DNA of 64,000 nucleotides from contig JBEWZL010000300.1 in the NCBI GenBank assembly GCA_045837725.1, positions 124,001-188,000 of the forward strand, given 5' to 3'. A program made the position numbers and the translations under genes. Each line of letters opens with the position of its first letter. The stretch's first letter is position 1. This document shows positions 7,624-47,205 of this stretch, piece after piece. Source of the stretch: Vermamoeba vermiformis (lineage: Eukaryota). A model generated the notes under the pieces. The model worked only from the letters and a program-made list of their open reading frames with translations. It ran no database searches and was not told the DNA's origin.

Positions 7624-9865
7624 ATGCAAACCGAAATCCTACCGATAAAAGAAGATCGAGCTAATCCTGGCCAAGGACCAACCTCGCCAGAAAAAGAAAA
7701 TAAATCCCCGAGAAAAGGCTCTGCAAAGGGTCATACTGCATTGGCAAAAAGTATGCCCGTCAAGCACAAAGCTCCAGCGGAAGATGAGTCAAATCCAAAA
7801 CAATCGCAGCGAAGCCCTATTCAAGACAGTCAAGATACAAATATTAGGAAAACAGTTATTGTAAAGAAGGAGCGAAAAAAGCAAAAGTAAGTCTTAAAGT
7901 TACTTCACGATTTTCCAAAATTATTGTCGGCCTCGAGACGCCTCTGTATGAAATTAAAGCATAGTTCCTGTATTAAAATAATACGTTTGAATTACGTCTT
8001 AATAATTGGATTTCTTCTACAGCGAGAAAGCTGCCGCTGAGGATTTCTTGAAGGGCATCAGCTTTGGCGATCCTAAGAAAGAGCTGCCGAAGAAGGTAAG
8101 CTACTTAAACTATGTATGATTGTCATGCATATGAGATTGAATCATTCGCGAATCTTTGATGCTAGATCTCCTTCTTTATTTTTGCCTAACTCGTCGCGTG
8201 CTCAGGTCAAAAAGCCTGCCGCTCCCGTACAGCCTCTTTACCAATCAGCTCATATCGAGAAAGAGGTCGTTATTCCTACAACCACACCTTTAGCAACTTC
8301 TCTAGGGCAATCGTTTGTATCCGCTCCTGCTGCTGAGGAGCTGATCGTCGAAGAGAGACCAATGCCAGTCATTGAAGAGGTGCATGATGACGAGGAGCAA
8401 CAAGCAAAGAAGAAACCTTCCACGAAGAAGAAGTTAGTAATAAAGGGAGCCAACCTGAAGAAGTACGTGGCCTTGCTGATATCGGAGTTTTGCTAACCCT
8501 TTTACAAAAATAGATACAAAAGCAAGTTGGTCAATTCTACGATGTACTTCACTTCTTCACATCAAAGCTACCCTATTGTATCGTCGCTCATCGTTACTTC
8601 CGACGCCAAGCTCGCCACACCTGCCCGAACAACTAGCTTTGAGAGGCAGTCGTTTTCACGTGAGAGGTCGTCTACACTAGAAGACATTACACGGCCACAA
8701 TTGAAGACATCGACTGCAGTAGTCAAGAAGCCATCAAAGGGCACAGCTTATGGTTATCTATTGCCTTTGTAAGCAAGCTCAGCCTCGTTAATTCTGCCAC
8801 TTCTAACTCTGCTTCAGGCACGAGGAATACAACCCGCACTTGTTGGACAACTCCTTTGTATTGCCTGGCAAACAGCGAATGGTTATTAACCTGCCTGGAT
8901 TCAGGGTAAGCGCAAGTAACACCGTTCATCGGTTACCGAACTGGCGGGACCAGAAAAAAGTTGAAACGGCGTTCAACAATCCGACATGGTGTAGGGGTTC
9001 AGCATATCCGCCTGTCACGCGGGTGACCCGGGTTCGATTCCCGGTGTTGGAGATTTCTTTTTTACTTTTTGGATTTTCCTTCGCTCACGCCTCTCTGCCT
9101 CCCGCTACGCTCTTCGAACGAATAGCGTTGCATTTTTTTTTCTTCACGCATCCATTCGACGGTTGACTGACCTTCTCTTTCAGGAATCGTTTTTCCCGTT
9201 TGTTAAGGCTGCACATCTCGAAGAAGAGTTGGACAGCGAGTTTAAAGAGAAGCACCCTTGGCTCAAGACAAACATCACTCTCAACGATATACGGAAGATG
9301 AAGAGAAGGTTGTTTGAAGTGTCCCTCAGCGTTGTAAGTACTCAGCCTCACGTGCCCTCTGAAAGTCCCACTAATGTTATCTAATCTTTAGTCACTCGAT
9401 GTTAGCACTACAGCGCTGTCGTACGTCTATTTTGAGCGCTTAATCGTTAAGGTACCTTAGCGTGCTTTTTGCAAATCATCTATTCGTATTTTGACTCAAC
9501 TAACGTCCGGTTAGAATCTCGTTACGAAGAACAATATGAAGTCTTATGCAGCAGCTTGCCTACTCCTAGCGGCCAAATTCAACAATCCAAGAGAGTTCGC
9601 TAAGCGGGTGTTTGAAGCTATCGACCGGACGTTTGTGCCTGCACGCGATGTTACGAGCGTCGAGTTTATTGTTTACAAAGATCTGGCGTTCAAGTTAATG
9701 GCGGATATGTCAGATGTCGAGCCGCACTTACAGCAGCTACAGGCTAGTCAAGATTATCAAGATCACTTGTTCGAGTACCAAGCGAGAAGAAGGAAAGGAT
9801 CCGTGCGAGATAGTATTTATGGCGAGTTACCTAATACAGGCAAACAAGCCGCAAACTCACAGTAG
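7624..9865 (+). CDS. CABLES-like cyclin-box protein, multi-exon
   Basis: Low-complexity N-terminus, then [79 protein letters not shown], which matches the recalled CABLES C-terminal cyclin fold. Confidence 0.8.
8980..9052 (+). tRNA. trnD: tRNA-Asp(GUC), inside an intron of the CABLES-like gene
   Basis: Cloverleaf TCCGACA...TGTTGGAG, anticodon loop CTGTCAC, GGTTCGATTCC T-arm, downstream T-run terminator. Confidence 0.97.
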
Positions 9866-13986: not shown

Positions 13987-15616
13987 TTACATTATAATGT
14001 TAAGAAGCATCGCTGCAACAACGGTGACTGCACCCAACAGTTGTGCTGCATCGCTCGCCTTCGAAGAGGTGGGAGTCTTAGTTGGAGCAGCAATCATGTT
14101 GCAAGTATAGCCATCGCCTTCATAGCCTGCGTTACATGCGCAGTCCGCGTAGCCAGGGTAAGAAGTGCACTTGGCATTGGAGTCACATGGATTGAGATCC
14201 GTTTGACAGATGTCAACGGAGAACGCAAACGTATCGCGGTGTTGGTCAGGCGAGATATAATCAAACGTGCCACGAACGATCCATAGACTGCCCATAGATT
14301 GACCTGCAAGGTCACCACGTGTTCCAGGGTAATTACTTGCATCAGCTTGATGAAATTTACCGTACTGAGGGGGTGTTATGGCACTATCGTTGAGAGTGCC
14401 CGAGATGAACTTCCATTCGTTGGATGTCATGTTGAAGGTGAACAAGAGATCGGAGTAGAAGACAGTAGGGACATTGGTCCAGCCACACCAGTACAAAAAA
14501 ATATTATTGCCAACGTATGCCATCGTGCCTGCAAGAGAGGCAGGAGGTTGAACTTGACCTTCAGTAAGCGTGGCATTTTGATTGGTACCGTTGCCGCTGA
14601 CCCACATCCATTGCAATGTCGATGGTCTGAAGCGCCATAGTTCGTTGCTCAAAGCATACCCAGGAAGATTACCACCATGGAACCTAAGAATAAAACCGGA
14701 TCAGGATCGACCTAATTTTTTGAGGTACGAATAGAGTTTATTAACAAATAAAAGTAGCTCGGTACTTACCAGACATCACCAGTAAGATCTATTGCGAAAT
14801 TAGCGGCCCAAGCTGGAGGACAGGTGACTTGATCGTCTGAGTACCAGGTGCCTTGTGCAATGCCGTCAGTACGAGGAACGTTTACTTCCTTGGTACCGGC
14901 GATCCAAGTCCACACGCCACTAGCGATACTATACTTCCATACATCACTGCGCCACTTGATGTTGGAACCAGCAAGGATCCAAAGCTCGTTGGATTTGAAA
15001 TCCGTCCAAGTAACCGCTCCAGAATTTTCACCGGGAAAAGTAACGTTATATTCACCAGCACCTTTAGTACCCCATTCGGCTGGCATTGGTTCGTGAATGA
15101 GTTTCCATTGACGAGAGCTGGTGTTGAACATCCAGAGATCCGTAAAGTAAGTGATCCAATAATCGTTAGTGCCGCCAGTCATCCATAAATTGTCGTCGCG
15201 ATCTACCCAAATGAGGGAGTTTTTGCGAGAAGGAGGTCTGTAGTCAGGTCCTTCCATGCCACGTTGTGGAGGGTAATTTCCTGTATCGTTGGTCGGCCAA
15301 CTTTGAATTTCAGACCAAGTGTAGTTATTTCTAACATCGAGTTTCCAAACATGATTGTAGTGAGCGGATTCATAGTCTTTTAAAATTAATTAATAAAATT
15401 TAAATTTGGCCGTTACAAAATAATAATCGGTTCTAGCATACCGTATTTGCTACCACCAAAGAGCCAAATATTGCCTTTCGAGTCTTGAACTTGAGCTTGA
15501 TATGCAAGATCAGGCATAGCACCGTTTGGACCTTCGATCCAAGTGGCCAAGTATTCAGAGCCTGCTACCAAAGTAGCGAAAAGAAGAAATAGAGGTATAA
15601 TCACTTTGGTGGTCAT
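13987..15616 (-). CDS. Secreted Kelch/galactose-oxidase-like beta-propeller + EGF-like protein with GPI-type tail, copy A (3 exons)
   Basis: Signal peptide MTTKVIIPLFLLFATLVAG; repeats D..GN.WLFGG / W.Y......WTW..G; CQTDLNPCDSNAKC...CACNAGYEGDGYTC; hydrophobic C-terminus. Confidence 0.85.
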
Positions 15617-15658
15617 TTTTAGTTGCGCAGCAAAGAATGATTCAGTTTTGGGAATAAA

Positions 15659-17621
15659 CTGTTCAACGGTTGGATGCCAAAAAAAGCAATCTCAAACACG
15701 GGAGATTGCGCGGGCAAAGTTTTAAATTAGTGTTCACGATAGTTAACATCAAAGGACAAATGGTTGAAATTTATGCTTGTAATAACGTACAACTTTACTT
15801 GGCTGATCAAATAAGGCTGATCATTACGGCAATAATGGTAACGAATGCACCCAACAGACGTGCTGCGTCGCTCGCCTTCGCAGAGGTGGGAGTCTTAGTT
15901 GGAACAGGAATCATGTTGCAAGTATAGCCATCACCTTCATAGCCTGCGTTACATGCGCAGTCCGCGTACCCGATGCGAGCAGTGCACTTGGCGTTTGAAC
16001 CACAGGGATTGAGATCAGTTTGACAGATGTTGACTGAGAACACAAACGTGTCGCGATGTTGGTCAGGCGAGACATAATCAAACGTGCCACGAACAATCCA
16101 TAGACTGCCCATAGATTGACCTGCAATGTCGCCACGAGTTCCAGGGTAATTGCTTGCATCAGCTTGATGAAATTTACCGTACTGAGGGGGCGTTATGGCA
16201 CTTTCGTTGAGAGTGCCCGAGATAAACTGCCATTCGTTGGATGTCATGTTGAAGGCGAACAAGAGATCCATGTAGTTGCTAGGATTTACATTGGTCCAGC
16301 CACACCAGTACAGAAGAATATTGTTGCCAACGTATGCCATCGTGCCTGCAAGAGAGGCAGGAGGTTGAACTTGACCTTCGGTCACTGAGGTACTTTGACC
16401 GGTGCCGTTGCCGCTGACCCACATCCACTGCAGTGTCGATGGTCTGAAGCGCCACAGCTCATTGCTGATGTAAAAACCGGGAATATTGCCACCGTGGAAC
16501 CTGTGCCATATTTAGGGTCAGATCAAGGCCAACAGTACACACTCGGAAGCAATACGCGCATAAGTTGCACTTACCATACATCGCCACTGCGGTCAATTGC
16601 ACCAGAGGGTGCCCAAACTGGAGGACGGTTGACTTGATCATCGGAGTACCAGACACCTTTTTGTACGTTATCATAGCTACGAGGAACGTCTACTTCCTTG
16701 GGTCCAGCCATCCAAGTCCACACGCCACTAGCGATATTATACTTCCAAACGTCACTGCGCCACTTTGCGTTGCCACCAGACAGGAACCAAAGCTCGTTGG
16801 ATTCGAAATCCGTCCATGTAACGGCTCCGGAAATATCGCCGGGAAAAGTAACGTTATATTCACCAGCACCTTTAGTACCCCATTCGGCTGGCATTGGTTC
16901 GTGAATGAGTTTCCATTGACGAGAGCTGGTGTTGAACATCCAGAGATCCGTAATGTAAGTGATCCAATAATCGTTAGTGCCGCCAGTCATCCATAAATTG
17001 TCATCGCGATCGACCCAAATGAGCGAATTTTTGCGAGAAGGAGGTCTGTAGTCAGGTCCTTCCATGCCGCGTTGTGGAGGATAATTTCCTGTGTCGTTGG
17101 TCGGCCAACTTTGAATTTCAGACCAAGTGTAGTTATTTCTAACATCGAGTTTCCAAACGTGGTTGTAGTGAGCGGATACGTAGTCTTAAAATTTTATATT
17201 TAAAATAAACATTTGGCCGTTACAAAATTATTTTTGGTTCTAGCCTACCGTATTTGCTACCGCCAAAGAGCCAAATATTGCCTTTAGAGTCTTGAACTTG
17301 AGCTTGATTTGCAAGATCAGGCATAGCACCGTTTGGACCTTCGATCCAAGTCGCCAAGTATTCTGATCCTGCTACCAAAGTAGCGAAAAGAAGAAATAGG
17401 GGTATAACCGCTTTGATGGTCATATTTAGTTGCGCGACAAACAAGTAATTCAGTTTTCGGCAACAAACCTGTTCAACGGTTGGATGCCAAAAAAAGCAAT
17501 CTCAAACACGGGAGATTGCGCGGGCAAAGTTTGAGTTTTAAGTTCAACGACAGTTAGCATCAAAGGACAAATCATATAATGCTTGAAATTTATGCTTGTA
17601 ATAACGAACAACTTTGGCTGA
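15659..17621. repeat. Near-identical intergenic spacers of the tandem array (about 15659-15806 and 17468-17621)
   Basis: Shared CTGTTCAACGGTTGGATGCCAAAAAAAGCAATCTCAAACACGGGAGATTGCGCGGGCAAAGTTT...GAAATTTATGCTTGTAATAACG. Confidence 0.9.
15807..17423 (-). CDS. Kelch-like propeller + EGF-like GPI-type protein, copy B
   Basis: Tandem paralog with the same exon structure as copy A. Confidence 0.85.
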
Positions 17622-19299
17622 TCAAATAAGGCTGATCATTACCGCCATAACGCTCGCGATTGTGAATGCACCCAGCAGTTGTGCTGCATCGCTCGTTTGC
17701 GAAGACGAAGGGGAGGAAGAAGAGGCAGGAGTCCTAGAGTCATTTGGAGCATTTGGCGAAGCAACTACGTTGCAAGTATAACCATCACCTTGATAGCCTG
17801 CGTTACATGCGCAATCCGCGTAGCCAGGGTAAGAAGTGCACTTGGCGTTTGAATCGCAGGGATTGAGATCAGTTTGACAGATGTCAACTGAGAACACAAA
17901 AGTGTCGCGGTGTTGATCAGGCGTGTACCAATCAAACGAGCCACGAACGATCCACAGACTGCCCATTGAGATTGAACTGAACTCGCCACGTGTTCCAGGG
18001 TAATTACTTGCATCAGCTTGATGAAATTTGCCGTACTGCGGGGGCATGTAAGTTTCGTTGAGAGTGCCCGAGATAAACTTCCATTCGTTGGATGTCATGT
18101 TGAAGGTGAACAAATTGTCTGAGTACCAGTTTGCTTGGTAGGAGTAGCCGGGCCAGTACAAAAGAATGCCGTTTCCCACATAGGCCATCGTACCTGAGTC
18201 AGCGCCCGCGGGCTGAACATGACCTTCCGCGAGATTGATATGTTGGTTCGTACCGTTGCCACTGACCCACATCCATTGCAATGTTGAAGGTTTGAAGCGC
18301 CATAGTTCGTTGCTTAAAGGATACCCAGGAAGATTACCACCGTGGAACCTAAGAATAAAACCGGATCAGGATCGACTATTTTTTGAGGTACGAATAGAGT
18401 ATATTTAACAAATAATAGTAGCTCGGTACTTACCAGATATCGCCAGTAGGATCTACAGCGAAATTAGCGGCCCAAACTGGAGGACAATTGACTTGATCCT
18501 CTGAGTACCAGGTGCCTTGTGCAATGCCGTCAGTACCAGGGACATTAGGCTCTTTAGGTCCAGCCATCCAAGTCCACACACCACTAGCAATATTATACTT
18601 CCATACGTCGCTACGCCATAGTAGATTGCCACCAGCAATGGACCAAAGCTCGTTGGATTTGAAATCCGTCCAAGTTACCGCTCCGTTGTTTTCGCCGGGG
18701 AATGTCACGTTATATTCACCAACGCCTTTGGTACCCCATTCGGCTGGTATTGATTCATGAATGAGTTTCCATTGAAGAGACGTAGTGTTGAACATCCAGA
18801 AATCCGATTGGAAGTCCAGCCAGTTGTTCGAGGCACCGCCGTAAATCCAAAGATTATCTTCTTTGTCCATCCAGGTCAATGCGGCGTAGCGCGCTGATGG
18901 TCTGTAGTCAGGTCCTTCCATCCCACGTTGCGACGGGTATTTTCCGGTGTCGTTCACTGGCCAGGTTTGAATTGCTGACCAAGTGTAGTTATTTCTAACA
19001 TCGAGTTTCCAAACATGATTGTATTGTTCAGATACGTAATCTGTATAGTTAATTGATTAGTTTTTGGTAAATGGATGGCGCTGCCGGTGTGCACTTGTAA
19101 ACGGAAAACGAAGGTTTAACTTACCGTTTTTGCAGCCGCCAAAGAGCCAAATATTGCCTTTCGAGTCTTGAATCTGCGATTGAAAAGCTAGATCTGGCAT
19201 TTCGCCGTTTGGCCCCTCGATCCAGGTGGCCAAATAATCGGATCCTGCGGCCAGAGCAACGTAGAGCAACCATACTGATACGACAACCTTTGTGTTCAT
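17622..19299 (-). CDS. Kelch-like propeller + EGF-like GPI-type protein, copy C (most diverged 5' half)
   Basis: Tandem paralog with the same exon structure. Confidence 0.85.
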
Positions 19300-20119
19300 A
19301 ATGTGAGTAAAAGTGATTAATTAAATGACGTTGAAGCATTTGAATTTATCGTTGTCGGCGGTATGTCCTCACAATGTCAAACTAAAAATAGAGAATTTAA
19401 CGACAATCTTAAAAAATGATTAAATTATACTCTGGCATACCGGTCGTATGATTCCTGCTTAGTATTATCTTCGTGTATGATCATAATACATCGAAGGACG
19501 TTTGTGCTGAGTCGATCTGGCGCTGTGGAGGAGTCTTGAGATCTTCAAGATCCTTGATTTCTATCCTCTCAGTGTCAAGTGCCATCGCCATACTCTCGTA
19601 TCTTATGTTCTGCGATTCGGGAATTGTTTAGTGGGACGCTCGTGACAGACAAGCTGAGATCAGAAAAATTATTTCTGTTGTCTCTTATTCGTATCACAGC
19701 ACAATAGATGTAATTTTCTCGTGGACTTTTGGTTGGTGTAATAACTAATTTTCGGAGTCTCTCTCAGCATTTTATTGAAGATGCGCATCTGCCAAATTGG
19801 TTCCAAAGTGGCCTAAAAATATGTAAATATTTTTTAAAAATTATAAATATGCTATTAATATTAATCAACTATAAGGAAAAGCCAAATTACTTGTTCAAAA
19901 AATTGCTACTCACTTTTGGGCTTGAGCACTTCGGATTTCCGTTCTGTTTCAACACTAAGCACTGATTTACAAGCAATAGCTATGTTGCAACCTTCACATT
20001 TTCACTGCTATTATGAATGAGCTCGCCAAATATACAGTTTTCAGCCTGCCAAATTAGTAATGCGGAGAAAGCGGTACAAAAGTACGCTGCGTTGGATTAT
20101 TTTTATTATATTTATGAAT

Positions 20120-23100
20120 ATGACAACAATACAAGCCCTTCTCATATTATTGTTTGCTAGTGCCGCGCTTGGCTCTTATTCGACAACGCAACAGCGACTG
20201 GATCCTGCTCGTGTACTGATTCTTTACGATGGTACTTACAGCGGAGATGAAGATCTAAATGGTGTTCAAGACTCTCTTCAAGTGGCCCAATTTTATGCCA
20301 ATGCTCGTGGCGTCCCTCTAGCGAATTTGCTCGAGATTAATATTACGGCAAATCCGACTTTTTCGGATGTAACAACTTCGGTCCTTCAGCCCGTCGTGAA
20401 CAAGCTCGATAGTATTGGGCCCAAAAGCATCGATGTCATGGCAGTTATGTGGCCTCTTCCATTTCGAGCCTCTGACGCATCCGTAGCAAGGCAGGATATC
20501 AGTATAGATACTGTTCTCATGCTTCCTTACAAATATTTATCTGGCGAACAGAAACCAGGTTCTGTTACTAACAACCAATTTATGAACAACAAGAATCCCT
20601 ACTTCCACGCAAATCCGACTTTTTCTCCGGATTATCCCCGTTTTGATCGTTCAAATGCAGACTTGGATGGTACGGCTTATACATTATATAATACAAATCA
20701 TGACTATAATTTTGTTAGGATTTTACCTGGTTTCTCGTATTGACGGTCCAGATGGTTTGTACGGAAAATTCAATATGATTGCCAACTCTATTTACGCCGA
20801 CAAATATATTGATCGAGGTACGATTGTAATGGCCATACTGCGCGTTCGTTTGTTAATATTTTTTTGAAATGCAGATACGTTTTGGGGCAATACATACATC
20901 AATACCAGAAATGGGAAAACTCTCGAACAGCTGCGGAGCTATCCGAGTAAGTCCACTGTTAACGTCCTTATACTACACATATTAAAGCTAACGACAATAT
21001 CAGATGTTTACTTAGGAAATTGCTATTCAGCAACAGATATTGATGGCTGCCTTGGTAGCGTCATGACTCTGCTTCAAAATTTATCGCTGCCGTACCGATG
21101 GGAAAACAGTAATTTAAAAATATAGCGTGTCATATTTAGTATATTATCTTAATGGTATATTTTGATAAGACGATCCGTCTATCGGAGAAGCGGGAGCTTT
21201 TTGGATGGACGACGGAGCGCCAGCTATAACAGCACCTCAGGCCTTGTTTTATTCAGGCTGGTATCAACACAATTACTACATGGACGTGTACGATTGGTTG
21301 CCTGGTAAGCCCACACTGCACTCGTTTTTCCAAAAAAGGTAATGCAAGCTAATTAACGTTCCTTTTAGGTGCCTTCGCAAATGATTTAAATTCCGATAGT
21401 TTTTCTCAAGTACGCGATGCACGCGTTGCTATACAGTCTGGGCCTAAAATGCTAAATGCTGGAGGTACGTATAAGAATGAATTGCAGATCGGATCTGTCT
21501 GAAAATCATCACGTGGTTTTTGTTTCAAGCCATTCCAGTATATTAGGCAAATGGTTATTTACGAATCAGTAATAACTTCCATTTTTAGTCGCTTGCGTCA
21601 CTGGCTCTGTCGGGGAGCCTTTTGGTTATGGACATCCCCGTGGGTCAACAACACTCTACTACTTGCTGCGAGGCTACAGCTACGCCGAGGCTGCGTCATT
21701 AGGCATCGTTTATATCAGTTGGAACTCATTGGCTGTTGGTGACCCGTTGTACCAACCTCTCGCTGCCAAAGAACCGGCTGTCGATACCGAAATTCCACAA
21801 ATTGACGTTTTTGAAATACAAAGAAATGAGCACGAAGGACATTGGGTTTATATTGCCTTGAGCGGAGTTGAAAGTAAGTACAAAAAAATTAATTCGAAGA
21901 AAAAATATTAATATTAATTGAACGTATTACGCTAATAGTACTATATATATTATTAAGAGCTATTTTTATTAATATATTAATAACTGACCATTTTGTTTCT
22001 TTCAGCCGCGAAATTGACGTTCAAGTACGGAATTCTATCGATCGAAGAGAATTCGTTTACGACAAAGGGTTACAAGAAGTACTTTAAAGAGTACATTGGT
22101 GAGCTGCAAAGTAGCACCGAATACGTATATCAGTAAGTTAAAACTGAACCCTTCATAACGCGAGTTCGTGCCGTTGACCAAGTTTGGCCTTCGACGAAAT
22201 TTCGCATAAAATATAGGACAAGCCTATGAGCCTGAATACAAATATAATATATATATAACGGAAATGCGGATCAAGGCAGCTAACGTGAGTTTTGTTTAGG
22301 GCTTCATTAGTGGATCCGAAAGGCAACACGATTACATTGGACGTGGGTACTTTTACCACTCCTGCTCGTTCAAGGTACAATAATGAAACGAATGCTATTC
22401 CTGGTCCCCTCGAATGCTTTCATTTTGACTACGGAGGTGATGGCATTGGCTCTTACTCTTACCGCGGCAAACCGTACTTTCACTGGAGTAGACCTGACTC
22501 TGCGGTATGTGCCTTATATTTATATTTGACTACATACCATGGTTTTAATTCATATTTACAATATTCGGTGTTTAGTACTTAAAATAGTTATTAAGTTTTT
22601 TAACTTTAGATTGACACTCGGATTTACGATTTTGGTACCTATTACATGAAGCATGATGATTGGATGAAATACACGGTTGATATTGCAAGCAGTGGCATAT
22701 ACTCAGTCACGTGGGACATTGCCTTGCCGAACTACGACGAATTTAACGTCACTTTTTCTTTGGACGGACAATTGGTTGGCGAGCCTAGCAGTATACCAAT
22801 GAAGGCCAATGACGATGTTGTTACTGTGCCCTTGAATGATATCCGGTTAGCAGCTGGCGAACACATTTTGAAAGTGCATCTGATCCACACGAAATTCAAT
22901 GCAACTAAGGAGGTCATTTTATTCACCAATATCTGGAAGCAAATGTCTTTTAAGTTAAGTAGCTCTATTGAGGATGTAGCGGCCCCTATAATTACGAAAC
23001 TTAACTCCGAAGAAACCAACGATAATTTCGTGGAAAAAATAGCCTTTTCCGATGACCTACACGTGTGGTACGTAGAGGTTTGGATCAATGGTGCACTTCA

Positions 23101-23465
23101 GGCGACGTGGAGAGAATTATCCCAAGATGGTGTCATGACGTTCTACATTCCAAAAGCAAAACTTCAGCTCGGTGCAAATACTGTCGTATTTAAAGCGTTC
23201 GATAGTACTGATAAATCAGTGGAGCAAAGTTTTTCGTGTAAGTAGCGAAAAAAATGATTCATGAAAGTATTTCTTAATTTTAAAAACTAACGATTGTTTA
23301 GACAATTTGGCGGAAATAGCCGTTCCTGATGGCACGATAATTACCCCTGCGGGAGTTAAGACTCCTTCAGGCGAGTTCGTTCAGCCACAAAGCAAGACTT
23401 CAGTCTCGCATCCGTTAATTGTCGGTCTCGCTCTAATGCTTGCCTCGTTACTTCTGACTTTGTAA
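20120..23465 (+). CDS. Secreted TIGR03790-like protein with FN3-like, CBM6-like and Ig-like modules and a GPI-type tail, multi-exon
   Basis: Signal peptide; RVLILY...DSLQVAQFYANARGVP, YLVSRIDGP, LFYSGWY, WLPGAFA, VTGSVGEPF, GYSYAEAA, ISWNSLAVGDPLYQP; IPGPLECFHFDYGG and DDWMKYTVDIASSGIY (CBM6-like); ends HPLIVGLALMLASLLLTL*. Confidence 0.8.
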
Positions 23466-24188
23466 CGCTTAGGGGTTACTAGATCCTTTGATCGATTAAA
23501 AATAAAACAAATGTAATATAAAAGATTAATACAAGTTTATGTTTAGTTGGATCTCTTTGCCATGATCGATCTCTTATGAAAAAAATTGACGGCGTTTTTG
23601 GATCTGCTTCACGCGCCCAAAATCAATTAAGTAAGCGAGATCATGAGAATACTCGGCATTTCTTTTTATTCCGACTTTAGGCACGACTGCAAGTTGATTT
23701 AAAAGTTTTTTGTTTTTTTTTTTTTACTTCAATGGTCGATTAATCAGCCTGATTGGATTTCTATCGCTTTCGGCAGTAAGATGCAAATTCTACGTGTATA
23801 AAACCTCTTCCAAAACAAATATATTTTTCAAAATTAAGGCTCTATTAGAAGCGTAGTTTTCGTATTTTTAAATTTATTAATGTAATATTCCAGAATATTA
23901 CATTTATAGAATTAGCTTCTTAAATTGGAGGATCGCAAATCCGGTCAAGTTTTCAACCGCGATATTTTCGAAGTTTAATCTTAAGTAATGGTCGATCTAC
24001 CTTAGTATAGTTCCGTGCCGATAAATGCTCGTATCAATGGAGCAATAAGTTTTATTCTTTTTTTCGAAATTAAGCGCGTTCAACGAAAAATTGTGAACTG
24101 TGACACGACTTAAAATTGTTGTTGGGGTAGTGGGGAAACTAATTTATTGCCATATTTACCCCAACACGACGACAACAAATTCGCGGCT

Positions 24189-31900: not shown

Positions 31901-32044
31901 TAAACGCAGGTATTCCATTTAATGTAAGATCCGATTTCGTTTTAAAAAAGTGCTTAAAATTCTCTGCAGCGGATAGATTTAATACGCTAAATAATTTAAA
32001 GTAATTGATTTATTGTAACAATAAGTATGTTATTCGAATAACAT

Positions 32045-35000
32045 TTAAACGTTGCGGAACTTGGGCTCGCATCTGTTCGGAATTTTAGCGATCAGAGAAT
32101 CCGGCAAGAAGTCAGCTTCAAACTGCGCGCCTTGACGGAACACATTGAGGCCTTCGATGCCTTCAGACCACGTCTTGTTCGGTCCAGCAATGACGATGAC
32201 AATGTAGTAAGTGATCGCTTCTTGCGTCCACTTTTCCTCGGGGTTCTTGTACGTCAAGCAGCCGTACGCCTTGCCCCATTTAGCAGGGATCTTCGTCTTG
32301 ACCATCACGTCGCGGAACTTGTCGTACTCGAGGATTTCTTTGGCTTCGACGCGGACCTGCCAGTCTTCTTCGAGCTTGCACCAGAGCATGTGTTCGCGGT
32401 GAGATCTGAAGTAAGCGTGGAGTTCTTTCAACGGCACGGGCTCAGCGTGGTTCTCACCAAACGTGTCAGGCATCTTGGCGCCAGCAGGAACTTCGATGTC
32501 GAACGAACCCTCGGCCAAGGGGTAAGATGTCAAAGTGTCAATGTTGGTCGGGCCGTCTCGGCGGTTTTGATGCGTGACAAATTGGTCAAAGATGTTGTAA
32601 TGGAGCGACATTTCGACCTTGTGAGTGCCAGCACCAGCGCGAAGGAGGTAGCCGTAGAGCAGTCTGGGCATCAAGTCCCAGCCAGTGTAGAACGATTCAG
32701 GGGTCATGGGCAAGCCAAGAATCTCAAAACCAACGGTCTGTTGCGTGTAGTACATGTTGTTGTTGCCGTGGAAGTATCCGAAGCTGTCTTGGAACGCGTA
32801 CTTTCTGTGCACGGGCTTGCCGTCAATCTTGAGCTGCAGCGACATGATCAACGAAGGCGCGAGGTAGTTCTTGTCCATCAGACCGTCGACGGGGTACACA
32901 GGAGTGCCGTCCTTCTTCTTGCCAATAGCGTAGTTGGCGATCGATCGAGGCCAAACAGCGCGTGCAAAGATCGGATCCGTCAAGCTGAACTTGGTCTTCA
33001 AGGCGTCCTTGTTCTTGATTTGAGGCTGGATAGTCTCGTTGGCAAAGACGATTTTGCCGGCAAGAGGCAAAGTGTACTCAGCGAGAATAGCGTCCTTCGT
33101 GCTATCAGGTCTGTTGGCGAAAGGAAGACCGCTTTGAGCAGGGGTGCCAGGACGAACCATCTCGTAGTCAGGAATGCCGACGTCTTCTTCAGAAGGCTGC
33201 CACAAGTCAGTGGGAGCAGAGGGCGTGGGCCATTCAGGCTCGAACTCGGGCTTCCAATTCTCCATCGAGTAGCGGAAGTAGCTGTTCCAAATCTTCTGCA
33301 AACGGCGGATAGCTGCACGGTGCGCAACAGGCCACTTCTCGAGCTGTTTAAGACCGCTGACAATGTGCTCTTGCTTGTGAATAGGCACCTTGCTGTCGAC
33401 TTTCTGAACCATGCCTTCAATGATCTCAAGAATCATGACCACCTTGCCCAAGTGCATTTGTTCCTTGATCAACTTGTCAATCTTTTCTTGGAACGGCGGG
33501 ATGTAGGGGAACTTCACGTTGAGCGAGTGCCATTCAGAAGCGACTTCATCGACGAAACCCAAGATGTTGTCGCGCATGGGTCGCTCTGCCTCGTGTGCAA
33601 TGCGGTGGTGCAAAAGACTGGCCTTAGACAAGACACCAACAAATTGCGAGACCACTTCGTTGCGTTTGTCGTTCTCTTCGATCTGAGCACGAGCTGTCTT
33701 AAGTTGTTCGAGCATGGTGTTCTTCAGATCATCAGCCGGCAGCTCGTTGACTTGCTTCTCCATCTTCTCAACCAAAGAAAGAGTGTGGGCCCACTTGCCG
33801 TAGATGTACGAAGGAGCGTTGTAGCCGCCCGTGTTAGTCGAAGTGGGCACAACTTCAGCGACCTTGGCCACGCGAATCAACTCGTTGACAGACTTCTTCC
33901 ACTCGCCGTTGATCGTCAAGATGTTAGTGTTCCATTGAATGACGAAACTGCGGGTCTGGGCAGGGGTGGAGGACTGGGCTTGAACGTTGGACAACGGGGA
34001 GTTCATGTGAATAACCCAAGGACCAAGCGTGGATTGAATAGGACCGCTGGGGAAGCCAGGAGCATTGGGAACTAATAAGAAATGTTGAATTAGAATCGGA
34101 TTCGAAAGCTATAATTGACGTGGATAATTACCTGACGACTTGACAACAGGAGTAAGAGGTGTCTCATCAGCGCTGGACTCAGCACCGGCAGCAGCTTTAC
34201 TGCCCATGGCAGCAGTGATCGTGCTCTCAAGGGTTGTAAGAGCAGCGCGAGTCTCGGTCACGTAGGTCTTGACGAGGGGCAAAGTGTTGTAAGGCGGGTT
34301 CTCGAGCTCGGAGAGGCTTTCGTAGGCCTTGGTCAAAGCGTCCAAAGCCTCTTGGTGGCGCGAGTGTTCGGCCAGGTTCTTAGCGTTGGTGACGTGAGTC
34401 TTGCCAGCATAAACCTTGTCGTAGACGACTCTGCCGAACATAGCTTCACCGACCTTAGCTTCCAAGCTATCAAGGGTGGGGTTGGTCTCCTTCAAGAAGG
34501 CGATGGTGGCCGGGAGATTGTTGTAAGGAGATTCGTCGAGTTCAGCAATGGCCTCGCGGGTCTTGGCGATGGCGGTAAGAGCCTCGCTGTTACGGCTGTG
34601 GAAGTGCAAGTCGTTGGCGGTGGTCAAGTGGGTCTTGGCAGCACGGATCTTGTCTTCAACGACTCTGCCAAACAAGACTTCACCGATCTTGCCTTCGAGG
34701 GTGTCAAGAGCGGGCTTGGCGTCCTTCAAGTAGGCAACAGTAATGTCGAGAGTGCCAAAAGGAGGTTGTTCAAGCTCGGCAAAAGCGTCTCTGGCCTTGG
34801 CAACAGCAGTAAGAGCCTCTTCGTTTCTGGAATGGAAGTGCATGCTTTCAGCTTCAGTGACAAGTGTCTTGGCAGCACGGATCTTGTCGTCAGCAACACG
34901 ACCGAACATGGCTTCACCGCATTGACGCTCGTATTGATCAATTTGCTTCTCGAACTCGGGCAAGAATTCTTGAGTGGCCTTCAAGCTGCCATAAGGAGCC

Positions 35001-37936
35001 TCCTTCAACTCGGAGATGAGCTCGCGGGCCTTGGCAACAGCGTCGAGGGACTCTTGGTATCTGTTGTGGAAGTGCATGTCCTTGGCAGTAGTTCCAAAGG
35101 TCTTGGCAGCACGGATCTTCTCGTCAACGACTTTGCTGAAGAGAGCTTCACCGCATTGGCGTTCGTACTCGTCAATTTGCTTCTCAAACTCGGGCAAGAA
35201 CTCTTGAGTGGCCTTCAAGCTGCCGTAGGGAGTTTCCTTGAGTTCAGCGATGAGCTCGCGGGCCTTGGCGACGGCGTCAAGTGACTCTTGGTGGCGGCTG
35301 TGGAAGTGCATGTCCTTGGCAGTGGTTCCAAAGGTCTTAGCGGCACGGATCTTCTCGTCGACAACTCTGCTGAAGAGAGCTTCACCGCATTGGCGTTCGT
35401 ATTCATCAACTTGCTTGATGAACTCGGGAAGGAAGCCAGAAACGGCCTCCAAAGAGCTCCAAGGGGCTTCTTGCAATTCAGAGATGCTTTCGCGGGCCTT
35501 GGCAACAGCGTCGAGGGCCTCTTGGTAGCGGCTGTGATAGTGCATGTCCTTGGCAGTAGTTCCGTGAGTCTTGGCAGCGCGAATCTTGTCATCAGCAAGA
35601 CGGGAGAACATTTCTTCACCGCACTTGGTTTCGATGTCGTCGATTTGCTTGGCGAATTCGTTGAGGAAGGTCTTGACAACGTCCAAGGTGACGTAAGGGG
35701 GTTGAGCAAGCTCGCTCATCTGTTCGCGAGCCTTGGCGACAGCTTCAAGTGCCTCGTCGTAACGGTTGTGGAAGTGCATGTCCTTGGCCTTGGTGCCATG
35801 GCTCTTGGCCTCGCGGATCTTGTCGTCAGCAAGGCGAGAGAACATAGCCTCACCGCACTGCTTCTCGTACTCGTCGATTTGTTTCTCGAAGGCAGGCAAG
35901 AACTCTTGAGTGGCTTTCATGTTGCCATAAGGAGCGTCCTTCAACTCGGCGATGAGTTCGCGGGCCTTGGCAACAGCTTCAAGAGCTTCTTGGTATCTGT
36001 TGTGATAGTGCATGTCCTTGGCAGTAGTTCCAAAGGTCTTGGCAGCACGAATCTTCTCGTCGACAACTCTTCCGAACATTTCTTCACCGCACTTGGCTTC
36101 GATATCAGTAATGTTCTTTTCGAACTCGGGCAAGAACTCGAGAACGCTCTGGAAGGTAGCGTAGGGAGGGTTGGACAGCTCAGCGATGAGCTCGCGGGCC
36201 TTAGCAACGGCGTCGAGTGATTCTTGGTATCTGTTGTGATAGTGCATGTCCTTGGCAGTGGTTCCAAAGGTCTTGGCTTCACGGATCTTGTCGTCGACCA
36301 AACGGCTGTACATGGCTTCACCGCATTGACGTTCATAGTCATCAATTTGCTTAGTGAATGCGGGCAAGAACTCAGCAACAGCAGGGAAAGTGTTGAACGG
36401 AGCATTGGACAACTCGGCGATACTTTCACGGGCCTTGGCAACTGCTTCAAGAGCTTCTTGGTAACGGCTGTGATAGTGCATGTCCTTGGCCTTGGTACCA
36501 TGTGACTTGGCCTCGCGGATCTTGTCATCGACAAGGCGACCGTACATTTCCTCACCACACTTCTTCTCGATGTCGTCGATTTGAGTGATGAAGGCCGGCA
36601 AGAACTCTGTGACCGCCTTGAAAGCGCTGAAGGTAGATTGAAGCTCGGCAATAGATTCACGGGCCTTGGAAACAGCGTCGAGGGATTCTTGGTATCTGTT
36701 GTGGAAGTGCATGTCCTTGGCCTTGGTACCGTGGCTCTTGGCTTCGCGGATCTTCTCGTCAACGACGCGACCCAACATGGCTTCACCGCAAAGTCGTTCG
36801 TACTCGTCGATCTGCTTGATGAATTCAGGCAAGAAGGCGGTGACGGCAGGGAAAGTGTTGAACGGAGCGGCAGACAGTTCGTTGATGCTGTCACGAGCCT
36901 TGGCAACGGCGTCAAGTGACTCTTGATATCTGTTGTGATAGTGCATGTCCTTGGCCTTGGTGCCGTGAGACTTGGCCTCGCGGATCTTGTCGTCAACAAT
37001 ACGACCGTACATAGATTCGCCACACTTCTTCTCGATATCGTCGATTTGGGCAATGAAGGCAGGCAAGAACTCGACAACGGTCTTGAAAGCTCCAAAAGTG
37101 GATTGAAGTTCGGCGATGCTTTCACGGGCCTTGGCTACAGCGTCGAGCGACTCTTGATATCTGTTGTGGAAGTGCATGTCCTTGGCCTTGGTGCCGTGGC
37201 TCTTGGCTTCACGGACTTTTTCGTCGACCACTTTACCAAGCATGGCCTCGCCAACCTTGGCTTCAATGTCGTCGATTTGCTTAATGAAGTCGGGGAGGAA
37301 GGCAGTGACTGACGAGTGAGTGTTGTACGGGGCTTCGGAGAGCAAGGCAATGCTTTCGCGGGCCTTGGTAACAGCGTCGAGCGACTCTTGGTATCTGTTG
37401 TGGAAGTGCATGTCCTTGGCCTTAGTACCGTGGCTCTTGGCTTCACGGACCTTATCATCAACGACGCGACCCATCATAGAGTCAGAAATCTTCTTCTCGA
37501 GAGTGTCGATCTGCGCGCGGGATTCGTTGAGGAATGTTTTTACTGCTTCGGCGAAGTTGTATGGAGCGATATCCAAGGCAATCAAACCGGCGCGGGCCTT
37601 TTCCAATGATTCGGAAGCTTCAGCGTATCGGTTATGGAAGTGCATTTGAGTGGCGTTGGCGAGCGGAGTTTTGACGTTGGAATACAAGCCATCCAAAACT
37701 TTCTTGACGAAGGCGCTAGCATCAGCTTCGAGCTTCTTGATTTCATTCTTTGCGGAAGTGACGAATTGTTGAGTCTTGGCAAAGGTAGCAGGAACAATCT
37801 TCATCAGACTTTCCTTTTCAAAAGCAACAACCGCATCTCGAAGTTTAATGACTTCTTCGAGCTGTGAGTTGGCCTCTTCGAAGCTTTTATATTCACGCTT
37901 TTTGAGCGAAGCAAGCAATCCTTCAAGAGCTTCCAT
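32045..37936 (-). CDS. ~1,940-aa protein: 15 tandem 76-78-aa helical repeats + globular C-terminal region; intron 34072-34130
   Basis: ORFs 34109-37936 and 32045-34006 join in frame (VKSS-VPNAPGFP...VIHMNSP) across a GT-AG intron; strong codon bias. Confidence 0.9.
34230..37700 (-). repeat. Coding tandem repeat, 15 units of ~228-234 nt
   Basis: Unit consensus VVDEKIREAKSHGTKAKDMHFHNRYQESLDAVAKARESIAEL..APY.T..AV.EFLPEF.KQIDEYERQCGEAMFGR. Confidence 0.95.
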
Positions 37937-39966: not shown

Positions 39967-42900
39967 TTACATGTTCAGCGTCGTGTGCACCAAGATCTTC
40001 ACGTTCGGGAACTTGTTTCTGAGACCGTGCACAGCAGTTTTGCTGAGAATATTGTTCTTAATAAACAATTCGTGCAATTCTCTGCAGCCCAACAACAACT
40101 TCTCGATGGCTTGGTCTGTCAAGTCGTTGCTGGAAATAGACAAATGTTTGAGCACTTTGAATTGCTTCGACATCAAGTCCAATGACTCGTCTGTTAACTT
40201 CTCGGGGTTTTGTAGCGACAGAACTGAAATTGTGTTAGCGGATCCACCGTCCGCGAGTGATTTTATCGCGGCATCCGTGATGGATGTGTTATCCAAGTAC
40301 AGTTCTTTCACGTTTTGCAGATTGGCCAAGTAGTGCACGCCCTGATCCGTGACTTTCTTGCACTAAAACGGAAATAAGTAATTTTGAAGTCGACTGTGAA
40401 ATTTCACGACTTACGTGATTAAACTGCAAAATTTCCACATTAGGCATGCACACCGCGACGACTTTCAGACTTTCATTGCTAGCATTGCCTTGCGACCAAT
40501 TGAAGTTCACCAACGCGGGCAATTTCTTGTTCAAATTCTTCAAGCAATCGAAGCCCAAGCCGAAACAACTCTCCATGTTCAACTGTGAAAAAATCATACT
40601 AGTTAATAGGGCTACATTAATATGACAGGATGACGTACCTCGCTCAATTTGTTGCACGACGCAAGTACTTCAATGATAGTGTCAATGCGATGGCAGTTGC
40701 TAATGTCAAGTTTTTCTAGGTCCGAACAGTTCTTTGCCAACTCGAGCATTGCAGCGCCGGTGATTTCAGAGCACTGTCGCAACACCAATCGACGCATCTT
40801 GGAGGCTACTTTAGCGATAGAGAGGATGGACTGGTCTGTCAAGTGCACACAAGACGTCAGATCCAGCTCGACCAAGTGCTTGCCAACTGATTTCGCGAGA
40901 CTCTTAATGGACGAGTCCGTGATCTATATTGAAATTTCGTTAGTTTGTTCATGAAAATGTAACTTTGAAAACGTACCTGACTGCAGAAACTCAATTTGAG
41001 CGTTGTCAAGTTAGGACACTTTGACGCGATATTTTTCACAGTTGAATCCTGAAAGATATTTAGCATTGCCTATATAAGGCAAAAATAACTTTTAAGAGCT
41101 TACTGAAATGTCCTTAATGTTCGAAATATCCAAGCTGACGAGTTGCGAGCACGTGCGTGAAATTTGTTGGATGACGTCTTCGTACACATTCTTGCAATTG
41201 CCCATTGACAGCTCAGTCAAGTGCGGCGTCTTAGTGAGGAATTGAATCGAGTACGATGTCAACAAGTGACAGTCATTCACGTTCAGTGAACTGCAAACAA
41301 AATCATCAGTTTCATGAACGAAAAGTTGCACTTCACAGGTAAATCTTACCTTAATTTTGTACAGTTGTAAATGACAGGTATTAATGCATCGTCCATCAGT
41401 TTGTTATCACCAGCCAATGACAAGTACGTCAATTTTGTAAAGTAAGAAATTGTTGCAATCCATTCAGAATCCAACAACGGACAATTGCTACAAAAACATT
41501 AGATCACGTGACAATATTAGGAATATTTCTAGGGTCGTACCTTAAGTCCAAATAAGTCAGTTCGGGCGGGAAATACCAACTCTTAACGGGATACTGGTGC
41601 TTCGGAATGAACTCCGTGACTGCTGAAGTGCCCAATCGAGCCAACGGATCTGACAACAACGAGGTACGTGAGCCTTTCACGCTTGCCTCGCGTTCTGATC
41701 GTTCAGCTTCTCGGCTCTAAATACACGTGGTTAATGACATGACCAATCGGAGAATTTCTTCGGAGTTTTTTTTCACGTACCAGTCTTCTCTCGTGCTTGT
41801 CCTTGTCGTGCTTGTCTTTTTCTCTGTCGTGCTTATCGAACTTTTCTTCGACGATTGTCTTCACTGAATTACTCAAAACATTTCCACTAAGAAAAATTGT
41901 TATTAGATCCGATCTGACTTCATCGTGTTAAAAACTTACGCAGCACGCATTATAGAATCAAGTTCAACTTTTTGCACGTTGGGATTACAGTTGCTACTAG
42001 CAGCCAAGTTGGTGTTTGAGCCTGGAGTCGGGGCACTAGCAACGCGTTGACTGCCCAACACTGCGCGAGGTGACACTTGTTGATTAGTCTTATTGTCTAG
42101 TAATTAACCACATCGTTAGATTAAGTGTTACTATTGATGTAAGTGCCGAGTACGTACCTCTCGGTGATGAGACGGGTGAAGTCCTGTCATTGTTTTTGGT
42201 GCTCATTGCTGACAAGTTGAGTGCATTGGGCGTTGAATGCGAGATACTTGACCGCGCATCTTTATCAGGTTTCGGTGACTTGTCCTTGTCTTTCTCACGT
42301 GGGGACTTTGACGAGGCCTTATCCTTGTCTTTCTTCGTTTTCACGTTGTTCATGGAGTTCAACAACGAGATCACATCGGGCTCGGGCGCTGACTCCGCTA
42401 ACGCCGGATCTCGTTTTTTCTTGTTTGTGGAGGACTGTGGCGAGGTTGTGCCCGGCAAGGTCGACGTTCTTTCACGCGGGGAAGTCACGTGCATGCTTGG
42501 CGGGGTCGTGGGGGTCGTCGCCAAGTTCGCCAATAAATTCGCGTTTGAATTGACCATTCGTTGTGCTGCGACGCCCTCGGGATTGCTCGAGATTGAATTC
42601 ATCAACATGCGTTTTGTTCGTTCATTTTCAGTGATGCAAATCATCGTGATTTGTTTGCAGCCTCGGCACGATAAATGTTCCAATTTTGGCACGTATCTTC
42701 CGATAAATTTCATCGTTTCATCGGTGATTTTGCATTCATCCAAGATCAAGTGCGTTAAATTTCCGCAAACTTTGAAAATGTTTTGGAACTTGGCTGTCAA
42801 AAACAAGTTAATTTCAGTGAAACAATAAATTTGATAAAAAAATTCACGTACCTTCTTCATTTGACTCTAAATTCTTGAACATGCCAGTCAAATTCAATCG

Positions 42901-45900: not shown

Positions 45901-46997
45901 CTATATATAGGTTAATAAGATGCATAAGTATATAACGAAGAGTAACAAATGATTGCAAAGTCACTCACCTTCATCGCTGCTGCATCGTCGTTTCCGTAGA
46001 GTCCTTCAGTATCTAACGCAAACTAAAATATTCGTTATTACATTGTAATTACTAAAATAATATAATGGTTGGTAATTAGTTCCTCGGAGTATTTTTACCT
46101 TAAATAGAATATTCAGGACCATATATTTATCTCCACCAGCGCGACCTCCGACATCAACTGGCTTAATAGTTTTTTGTTCGCGAGGCAATCCTACTTCACT
46201 AATAATAATTTTGCCCTATTTTAAAAAATTATTAATTTTTAAGTGCCATGTTGACAACTTGAGAATTAACTACTGATTTACGGACTGATTATTAATATGA
46301 AATTATTACTGTTGGTAAATAGACTAATCGAATTTATTCTCGCAAAATTGATATTTCGCGATCTGAAAATAGATCTCGCGAGCTAAAGTCCGCGCGAGAT
46401 CACAAATCTTACTTGATTTTGCTTTTTAATAAAATATTTATGGGTAATTTATTCATCACTTACGTATATTTGCGCCGCGTAACAAAAGTCATGGGCCAGC
46501 TCTGCTAATTTTCTGAATTTGTCCGTGCTTTCATCGTCCGATCCCTCTTTTACTTCCAATAACTGCTGAAATTCTTCGTTCCAATTTTTTTCGAACATTA
46601 TTGGGTTATTTACGGGCGCATTTACTTGACTTAGCGTCTCTAATAGCATCATTATTTTTAGATCCAATTTCTTTAGTTTAAAATAAATTGTAATTCCAAA
46701 AAATTACTTACCATCAGTTTCATAGTCATTTAATTTATATGAACTCGATGAATATTCAGAAGAGGTCTCTGAAATCTGTCCAGTTGACAATTTTTGTGCT
46801 GTTTCGTCATCTGGGACGTAATCTGAGGCTAAATCTGACGCTAAAGAAGAGTTATCTTCATAGGCATAGCTTCTCTTAATAACTTCGTTGTGGTCTGGCG
46901 TAGTATTCTCACTACTATTGTTATTAGGCCTCAACAAGCCGGATGCAGCTGAGCTATTTAAACTTGGAGGTTGCGAAAAATTATCTTCGTAGCTCAT
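39967..46997 (-). CDS. Clu (clustered-mitochondria type) domain + TPR-like + leucine-rich-repeat protein, many exons
   Basis: NWNEEFQ, LAHDF, AANHELKG, ALINYRGYRLVA, DIEGHLGRDNRYYLIDFARVFPP, LLRPEL, LHRNGINIRHLG; helical TPR-like middle; cysteine-containing LRRs (LDLTSCVHLTD, LDISNC). Confidence 0.85.
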
Positions 46998-47205
46998 AGT
47001 GTCATACTTGTATATTAGTATCGACTTGTAGTATACATAGTTGTCGCTGCAAACGAGTGAAAAGAAGAAAAAAAATTTTGGATCATTCAAGGCACGTGAC
47101 GATTTTACGAAGTGATTTAGTGGATTAAGGGCCCGAAAAAACGAGATGCAAGACGGAATATAATTAGAGTATGCTTGAACTATACATTTAGGGTTTATTT
47201 ACAAT

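Follow-up and report, generated by a model that had tools for sequence, protein, structure and literature searches.

What does a gene for a protein built like a bacterial surface protein do among the genes of a eukaryote, and how did it get there? This question is raised by positions 20120-23465 of a 64,000-nucleotide (nt) stretch of Vermamoeba vermiformis DNA (contig JBEWZL010000300.1, positions 124,001 to 188,000), which was analyzed at its full length and is called the window here. The encoded protein belongs to TIGR03790, an uncharacterised prokaryotic family. With a probability of about 0.75, the gene encodes a bacterial TIGR03790-family surface protein that was acquired horizontally and now belongs to the genome of a eukaryote, most probably of an amoebozoan. 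A first-pass annotation, made from the letters alone, had proposed an old horizontal transfer, and the results agree with it: a bacterial-type multidomain protein is encoded by an intron-rich gene in a eukaryotic genome, and the transfer was not recent.

An intron-rich gene for a TIGR03790 protein

The region 20120-23465 on the forward strand is one gene with 11 exons, 10 introns, and 821 codons plus stop (2,466 nt). It extends from the ATG at 20120 to a stop codon that ends at 23465, and the first-pass annotation had delimited exactly this coding sequence. About ten spliceosomal introns had been claimed, and there are exactly ten, all with GT-AG borders and 49-167 nt long; splicing leaves a single terminal stop. 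The guanine-plus-cytosine (GC) content is 0.446 in the exons versus 0.19-0.39 in the more AT-rich introns, and a CTRAY-type branch-point-like motif is present 15-22 nt 5' of the 3' splice site in five of the ten introns. The gene model was checked by comparison with intronless relatives from public data. The spliced protein aligned with relative P0007 (814 amino acids (aa)) over model residues 29-702 with 34% identity (E 7e-105), and with relative P0029 (820 aa) over model residues 1-785 with 29% identity (E 5e-96). All ten junctions fall within the ungapped conserved alignment to the intronless P0007. This includes intron 3, which is itself stop-free and in frame, and the removal of which restores the ungapped alignment. 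The locus is a real, intact 11-exon gene.

The phases of the introns, which all lie within 20670-23301, are 1, 1, 1, 1, 1, 1, 1, 2, 0 and 1. Eight of the ten are thus in phase 1, and the probability of at least eight is 0.003 under equal phase likelihood; either an insertion-site preference of the genome or a quirk of this gene may be involved.

Family membership was seen with the NCBIfam profile of TIGR03790. Exon 1 matched profile positions 12-130 of 316 (E 9e-10, 38.5 bits) and exon 7 matched positions 276-316 (E 6.6e-4, 19.3 bits); singly, none of the other nine of the 11 exon pieces (23-209 aa each) matched the profile. The two matches are colinear with the profile, and its middle part is covered by the ungapped alignment of exons 2-6 to family members. 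An exhaustive HMMER search with exon 1 in 1.84 billion representative proteins revealed 155 proteins at E<=1e-3. When 25 of these relatives were scanned, 23 passed the curated cut-off of the family (67 bits), namely all 23 long ones, with 97.2 bits for P0029; the two short relatives remained below it. In addition, a hidden Markov model (HMM) was built from 62 relatives (61 bacterial-type proteins and P0029), 21 of which are among the 23 that passed the cut-off. The spliced protein matched this HMM in one stretch over model residues 7-740 with 545.8 bits (E 1e-167), and it is identical to the relatives at 72 of the 80 columns that are conserved to at least 85%. A word-indexed search of longer proteins with exon 1 retrieved none at E<=1e-3, and the 64-kb window contains no second copy of the gene.

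The first-pass annotation had named the family correctly, based on a series of motifs. The exons encode all six motif groups: exon 1 contains VLILY and DSLQVAQFYANARGVP, exon 2 LVSRIDGP, exon 5 YSGWY, and exon 7 GSVGEP, GYSYAEA and SWNSLAVGDPLYQP. A link to PEP-CTERM, which had also been claimed, was not found among the near relatives; in a crude test, none of the 89 long matches had a hydrophobic C-terminal segment together with a P[ED]P motif.

The full bacterial module order is kept in the protein encoded in the window, i.e., the family-specific head domain is followed by an FN3-like module, a CBM6-type module and an Ig-like domain. The head and this order are shared with the bacterial-type relatives P0007, P0002 and P0023, whereas the bacterial family members are intronless. 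Structures were modelled for P0007, the closest full-length relative (62-sequence alignment; predicted local distance difference test (pLDDT) 88.3, predicted template modelling score (pTM) 0.82), and for the head-only P0043 (pLDDT 94.9, pTM 0.93). Residues 507-666 of the P0007 model superpose with the CBM6 of CtXyl5A, an arabinoxylanase of Clostridium thermocellum (PDB 2y8k, 5la0-2, 5g56), with a Z score of 22.0, a root-mean-square deviation (rmsd) of 1.7 and 28% identity (chain 2y8k_A), and P0007 matched Pfam CBM_6 with E 4e-9. In contrast to CtXyl5A, the CBM6 of the TIGR03790 proteins is joined to a non-glycosidase head, and exon 10 of the window gene itself resembles CBM_35 only weakly (E 0.013, below the cut-off); the CBM6 is split over exons 9 and 10. 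For the Ig-like domain, Big_7 matched exon 10 alone only weakly (E 0.0088) and P0029 with E 6e-15, the alignment of P0029 reaching model residue 785. The window protein is colinear with its relatives through the CBM6, and the FN3, CBM6-like and Ig-like modules named in the first-pass annotation were borne out by this alignment together with the P0007 model.

Eukaryotic housekeeping genes lie on both sides of the TIGR03790 gene. The intron-split genes in the window encode ERG4/24, cysteinyl-tRNA synthetase, isocitrate dehydrogenase, a photolyase, protein kinases, a PH-domain protein, a Kelch/EGF protein, a protein with leucine-rich repeats (LRR) and a CLU domain, poly(A) polymerase, a member of the endonuclease/exonuclease/phosphatase family, and PP2C. 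The GC content at third codon positions (GC3) of the TIGR03790 gene is 0.44, compared to 0.32-0.64 for its neighbours (pooled 0.48), and the correlation of relative synonymous codon usage is 0.56; Planctomycetota-type homologues have GC3 values of 0.82-0.86. Based on the ten spliceosomal introns, the eukaryotic neighbours on both sides and the matching composition, the gene is physically part of a eukaryotic genome. For the CLU exon of the neighbouring LRR-CLU gene, the matches that carry an organism name were almost all from Amoebozoa, with one row labelled as an archaeon. Five dictyostelid genera (62-68% identity) were followed by Physarum, Balamuthia, Planoprotostelium, Pelomyxa, Acanthamoeba and Stereomyxa, and the matches have the same CLU plus LRR architecture. 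A GC content of 40% and the many introns are not typical of dictyostelids, and the host is therefore placed no more closely than in Amoebozoa.

The origin of the gene was analyzed with two unrooted trees, one of 88 rows, which is based on the head-FN3-CBM6 region, and a careful one of 47 rows, which was calculated with a mixture model and 200 bootstrap trees. The named relatives are proteins of Planctomycetes, Planctomycetota and Lentisphaeria metagenome-assembled genomes (MAGs). In the 88-row tree the window protein lies within nested clades of 27, 33, 53 and 57 rows (Shimodaira-Hasegawa-like approximate likelihood ratio test (SH-aLRT) 96, 99, 95 and 99), which otherwise consist of bacterial-type proteins, among them those of a Planctomycetota and a Lentisphaeria MAG. 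Seven rows among the 155 matches are eukaryote-style (four clusters at 50% identity plus the window protein). These seven are monophyletic in the 47-row tree, with an ultrafast bootstrap value of 96, an SH-aLRT value of 71 and presence in 96% of the 200 bootstrap trees. They form two subclades, one with the window protein, P0010, P0001/P0151 and P0004 (100/99), the other with P0029 and P0022 (100/99), and the next row out is the bacterial lipoprotein-type P0142 (96/82). Because the seven eukaryote-style rows form one group that is nested among bacterial-type rows, a single old transfer is the best-supported reading. Two findings had been named that would speak against the first-pass annotation, and neither was seen: the TIGR03790 profile does match, and instead of a broad vertical distribution across eukaryotes, the search of 1.84 billion representatives revealed only this small eukaryote-style clade among the 155 relatives.

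The only full-length eukaryote-style relative that was found is P0029, from a contig of 2,597 nt; of the same type is P0022, a genomic fragment. None of the 63 matches of P0029 is named as eukaryotic. A scan of metagenomes gave 117 pattern matches and five confirmed loci; four of these look prokaryotic (L001, L002, L004, L005) and L003 looks eukaryotic, while no contigs of the P0001 or P0010 type were among the five. A scan of genome contigs gave ten pattern matches, three of which were confirmed. L003 (1-2556) consists of a 66-nt leader, one open reading frame (ORF) of 820 codons and a 27-nt trailer ending with AATAAAG, its GC3 is 0.28, and it encodes a protein with slight differences from P0029. 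The contig has the appearance of an assembled mRNA of a eukaryote, and therefore introns are not visible in it. P0029 and L003 have the modules in the same order as the window protein, their leader likewise lacks basic residues, their C-terminus is hydrophobic and free of charges, and they group with the window clade. They differ from the window protein in that they are only 29% identical, contain an additional EB module (PF01683, E 1.5e-5), and retain a conserved His and a conserved Asp that are replaced in the window copy.

The remaining eukaryote-style relatives are short ORFs that stop where the similarity ends, i.e., the P0001 cluster (183-aa ORFs on contigs of up to 445 kb), P0004, and P0010 (121 aa, contigs of up to 274 kb). 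The P0001 ORFs appear to end at the position of intron 1 of the window gene, with an extra Ser-Lys-stop, as a phase-1 GTAAGT donor would encode. P0010 and P0022, which belong to different subclades, lose similarity at the same position, around window residue 100-105 and just after the conserved Gly of a D/N-x-x-G motif, where exon 1 of the window gene is uninterrupted. Such a break would be expected if both subclades had inherited an ancient intron at this site that later disappeared from the window lineage.

Protists are known to acquire bacterial genes that subsequently gain introns and become re-targeted, and bacterium-derived genes are found in the genomes of Dictyostelium, Acanthamoeba and Physarum. 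Because the process is known, the event as such is not surprising; it is a clear but not unusual case of gene transfer from a bacterium to a eukaryote. It is the same kind of event as in those amoebae, i.e., a bacterial gene has been fixed in a bacterivorous amoeba, has adapted in composition and bears introns. The difference is the family: in the open literature searched, TIGR03790 is not mentioned, neither is there a report of it in eukaryotes, and the window gene is the first case that was found of this prokaryotic family in a eukaryote. The four-module architecture was transferred as a whole and conserved, and only the ends were remodelled, which makes the gene a clean example of a bacterial surface protein refitted for the eukaryotic secretory pathway.

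Head domain, protein ends and possible role

The first-pass annotation had expected a catalytic fold for the head. Modelling of the relatives and structure search revealed a gingipain-like fold, but the family lacks a conserved cysteine. The two head models matched the gingipain RgpB with Z scores of 20.7 and 20.2 (about 294 aligned residues, rmsd 3.5-3.7) and Kgp with 19.4 and 19.1, whereas the scores were about 12 for separase, about 10 for CHAT/Craspase proteases, 9.0 for PorU, and about 6 for legumain, GPI transamidase and caspases. Because the gingipain scores of about 20 are far above all others, the modelled head is a clan-CD scaffold that is closest to family C25. The gingipains RgpB and Kgp of Porphyromonas gingivalis (MEROPS C25; PDB 4ief, 1cvr, 4rbm) are thus the nearest solved fold, with about 290 residues aligned over both subdomains, and their two-subdomain caspase-haemoglobinase-type fold is shared by the P0007 and P0043 models. 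On the sequence level there is about 10% identity and no match: a PDB sequence-profile search gave 14 matches, which were all in the CBM6 or FN3 part and not in the head, and no Pfam family covers the head in the window exons or in five relatives. The scaffold is common to both groups, but the chemistry probably is not.

The loop that follows the first strand, D-x-D-x-[DN]-G-x-x-D-S, is the most conserved stretch of the family and is kept in all 61 bacterial-type and all seven eukaryote-style rows. It resembles the DxDxDG calcium-binding loop and may have a similar role. Further conserved Arg, Asp, Glu, Trp and Tyr residues are clustered at strand ends, as seen in the models and the alignment.

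A rather unlikely possibility is that the clan-CD scaffold of the head forms a genuine enzyme with a new type of catalysis, a glycan or peptide hydrolase or lyase, which would be tethered at the cell surface and would degrade bacterial exopolysaccharide, capsule or cell wall. This largely corresponds to the function suggested in the first-pass annotation, an action on bacterial exopolysaccharide or biofilm. CBM6-type modules usually go together with carbohydrate-active enzymes. In accordance with such a role, relatives carry CBM_6, BACON_2, DNRLRE and disaggregatase-related repeats, which are typical of secreted glycan enzymes, one relative is adjacent to a GH123 glycosidase, and invariant Asp, Ser, Arg and Glu residues are found at strand ends in the models. 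However, no activity is known for any member of the family, which is absent from the literature searched, and no solved relative of the head is detectable by sequence. Furthermore, in the window copy a conserved His is changed to Arg and a conserved Asp to Asn, and four of five neighbourhoods of relatives contain solely other large surface proteins or unrelated genes.

An active clan-CD peptidase, i.e., a gingipain-like enzyme with a non-canonical nucleophile, is far less probable. In its favour, RgpB and Kgp are the nearest folds (Z 19-21), ahead of separase, CHAT proteases and PorU; furthermore, the family has an invariant Ser, another Ser that is almost invariant, and a His that is shared by 49 of the 61 bacterial rows. 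In contrast, no Cys column exceeds 55% in the 62 relatives, the four Cys of the window protein (247, 256, 355 and 529) are in non-conserved columns, and a Pfam Peptidase_C25 match was obtained neither with the 11 window exon pieces nor with five relatives. To judge from strand order and spacing in the models, the positions of the gingipain His/Cys dyad appear to be occupied by Ile-Gly and Gly-Trp-Tyr. Because the family has no conserved cysteine, a cysteine-protease mechanism is very unlikely, and a cysteine protease was rejected as an identity for the head, also in view of the missing Peptidase_C25 match.

At both ends of the protein, the signal peptide and the GPI-like tail (GPI, glycosylphosphatidylinositol) claimed in the first-pass annotation fit simple sequence rules. 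The leader is an uncharged hydrophobic stretch with small residues at its end and a hydropathy peak in the windows of aa 1-6. The C-terminus consists of an uncharged hydrophobic run of 16 residues up to the final residue, with one charged residue in the last 25. The candidate omega sites S798 (spacer 5) and S801 (spacer 2) have short spacers, and a tail-less membrane anchor is the alternative to a GPI anchor. The alignment to the bacterial-family HMM stops at model residue 740, which means that exon 11 has no bacterial counterpart there. The bacterial relatives end differently: P0006 has a type IX secretion system (T9SS) sorting domain, in contrast to the eukaryote-style hydrophobic tail of the window protein, and only two of the 89 long relatives have any hydrophobic C-terminal 15-mer. 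Since exon 11 has no bacterial counterpart and the bacterial relatives end otherwise, an exchange of the anchor relative to the bacterial family is plausible on sequence grounds. By eye, the last 50 residues of P0007 and P0011 look like dockerin-type calcium-binding repeats, which raises the possibility that part of the family is anchored in assemblies resembling cellulosomes.

A possible sequence of events is as follows. The leader would direct the protein into the secretory pathway, and the exon-11 tail would be exchanged for a GPI anchor, or serve as a tail-less membrane anchor, leading to display at the cell surface. There, the CBM6 would bind a beta-linked glycan, and the head would engage a glycan or glycoconjugate ligand, e.g., on bacterial prey or in the extracellular matrix, by non-protease ligand binding or catalysis. 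For a bacterivorous amoeba, recognition or processing of bacterial surface polysaccharide is the natural guess. Taken alone, surface display and glycan binding each have nearly an even chance of being right. A wider proposal is speculative and quite improbable: the proteins of the eukaryote-style clade would be GPI-tethered receptors or enzymes that bacterivorous amoebae took over from their prey and that now serve to recognise bacterial surface glycans, to hold on to them or to strip them off when the amoebae feed. If it were true, the function of the TIGR03790 head, which is uncharacterised in bacteria, would for the first time become accessible to experiments. In any case, a eukaryotic host that may be culturable could help to find out what a domain with a gingipain fold but without protease residues does.

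Counter-evidence and rival origins

Several observations weigh against the reading of the gene as a transferred, resident gene for a surface protein. The exon-piece scores with the TIGR03790 profile sum up to 57.8 bits, which is below the 67-bit cut-off, with the unspliced pieces scored separately. The start codon is ambiguous among the ATGs at 20060, 20114 and 20120; the N-termini of relatives fit a start at 20114 or 20120 best. In RNA-seq runs with the same species label hardly any reads were found at the locus (1, 2 and 0 reads in X2, X3 and X4, and one 203-nt contig in X1, covering 23287-23489), no splice joints were among them, and the presence of the organism in these runs is not established. 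The terminal branch of the window protein is 1.19, compared to a median of 0.54 in the 88-row tree, which weakens its exact placement. Signal-peptide cleavage and GPI anchoring are predicted by rule of thumb, and the fold is that of models of relatives, which share at most 34% identity with the window protein. The window copy alone has Arg177 in place of a His that is present in 55 of the 61 bacterial rows, and Asn226 in place of an Asp that is present in 54 of the 61; P0029 keeps both residues, and P0001 and P0151 keep the His. Because these two conserved polar residues are replaced, the window copy may have lost an activity that the family has. Lastly, the gene neighbourhoods of five prokaryote-style relatives revealed no recurring operon and no consistent functional context, and the branch that joins the two eukaryote-style subclades has an SH-aLRT value of only 71.

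The last point bears on the number of transfers. The gene may have entered eukaryotes in at least two events, one leading to the window gene together with P0010, P0001 and P0004, the other to P0029 and P0022. In favour of two transfers, P0029 shares 46% identity with bacterial proteins over 88-89% of its sequence, but only 29% with the window protein; the uniting branch reached an SH-aLRT value of 69 in the quick tree, similar to that in the careful tree, and P0029 was placed outside the window clade in a tree based on exon 1. However, two acquisitions are unlikely, because the two subclades are united in the best tree with the bootstrap values given above, both end with a hydrophobic, charge-free C-terminal tail, and the similarity of P0010 and P0022 breaks off at the same position, as would be the case for a shared intron.

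That the gene is an unexpressed relic, which has been decaying since its transfer, is highly improbable. In its favour are the long terminal branch, the two replaced polar residues and the nearly complete lack of RNA reads on the locus, which is not a valid test of expression. In contrast, the frame is intact over 11 exons, all splice sites are canonical, 72 of the 80 conserved columns are kept, and the leader, the tail and the AATAAA are intact.

Bacterial contamination or an assembly chimera, as well as an ancestrally eukaryotic family that moved into bacteria, can be dismissed almost completely: the sole point in favour is the bacterial affinity of the protein itself. These readings were rejected in view of the ten spliceosomal introns, the eukaryotic flanks, the neighbour-like composition, the position of the eukaryote-style clade several well-supported nodes deep among bacterial-type rows, and the scan of the long relatives, in which all 23 proved to be TIGR03790 proteins, one of them with a T9SS tail and one a named Lentisphaeria protein.

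Feature coordinates and neighbouring regions

Table 1. Features of the TIGR03790 gene, with positions in the window and the basis of each assignment.
Feature	Position	Strand	Basis
Three in-frame candidate ATGs (20060, 20114, 20120)	20060..20122	+	In-frame stop upstream at 20018
Whole coding region	20120..23465	+	Joined exons, colinear with P0007 and P0029
Signal-peptide-like leader, aa 1-18	20120..20173	+	Rule of thumb
Head domain, aa 25-417 (exons 1-7), TIGR03790, gingipain-like clan-CD fold	20192..21782	+	Boundaries mapped from P0007
D-x-D-x-N-G-x-x-D-S loop, aa 43-52	20246..20275	+	Most conserved stretch of the family
FN3-like beta-sandwich, aa 419-508	21786..22354	+	Mapping; secondary structure of P0007 412-506; weak FN3 profile matches
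CBM6-type module, aa 509-675	22355..22960	+	Mapping from P0007
Ig-like domain, Big_7-like, about aa 686-772	22991..23315	+	Mapping; Big_7 in P0029
GPI-signal-like end: candidate omega S798, S801 and tail aa 806-821	23391..23462	+	Simple rules
Exon 1 (aa 1-183), leader and first half of head	20120..20669	+	TIGR03790 match
Exon 2, contains LVSRIDGP	20719..20817	+	P0007/HMM alignment
Exon 3	20875..20946	+	P0007/HMM alignment
Exon 4	21004..21108	+	P0007/HMM alignment
Exon 5, contains YSGWY	21170..21304	+	P0007/HMM alignment
Exon 6	21369..21464	+	P0007/HMM alignment
Exon 7, end of head (GSVGEP, GYSYAEA, GDPLYQP) and start of FN3-like module	21589..21873	+	TIGR03790 match
Exon 8, FN3-like module	22006..22132	+	P0007/HMM alignment
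Exon 9, end of FN3-like module and start of CBM6	22300..22504	+	P0007/HMM alignment
Exon 10, remaining CBM6 and Ig-like domain	22610..23237	+	Weak CBM_35, Big_7; alignment
Exon 11, linker, hydrophobic C-terminal tail and stop	23302..23465	+	Joined frame, tail rules
AATAAA, possible polyadenylation signal, 36 nt past the stop	23501..23506	+	Sole AATAAA in 23466-23700

Directly upstream of the TIGR03790 gene, a large gene is located on the reverse strand (13987-19056). It contains three nearly repeated units of a Kelch beta-propeller and EGF_3, has attractin-like matches, and looks like another surface or secreted repeat protein. The LRR-CLU gene is also on the reverse strand (39970-47717) and in addition encodes an eIF3_p135 domain, a combination that is also found in dictyostelid proteins annotated as 'Histidine kinase A' or 'Clu domain-containing'.

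Between these two genes lies a block with a GC content of 0.50-0.53, compared to about 0.40 around it (32042-37936, both strands). It contains an open frame of 1,275 aa on the reverse strand, and two frames of 677 aa (forward) and 687 aa (reverse) that overlap on opposite strands. Scattered sub-threshold Pfam matches were obtained, and the block looks like low-complexity or repeat coding sequence. Three tRNA genes are present in the window, at 8980-9052 on the forward strand and at 63519-63601 and 63906-63978 on the reverse strand; the one with a length of 83 nt may have an intron.

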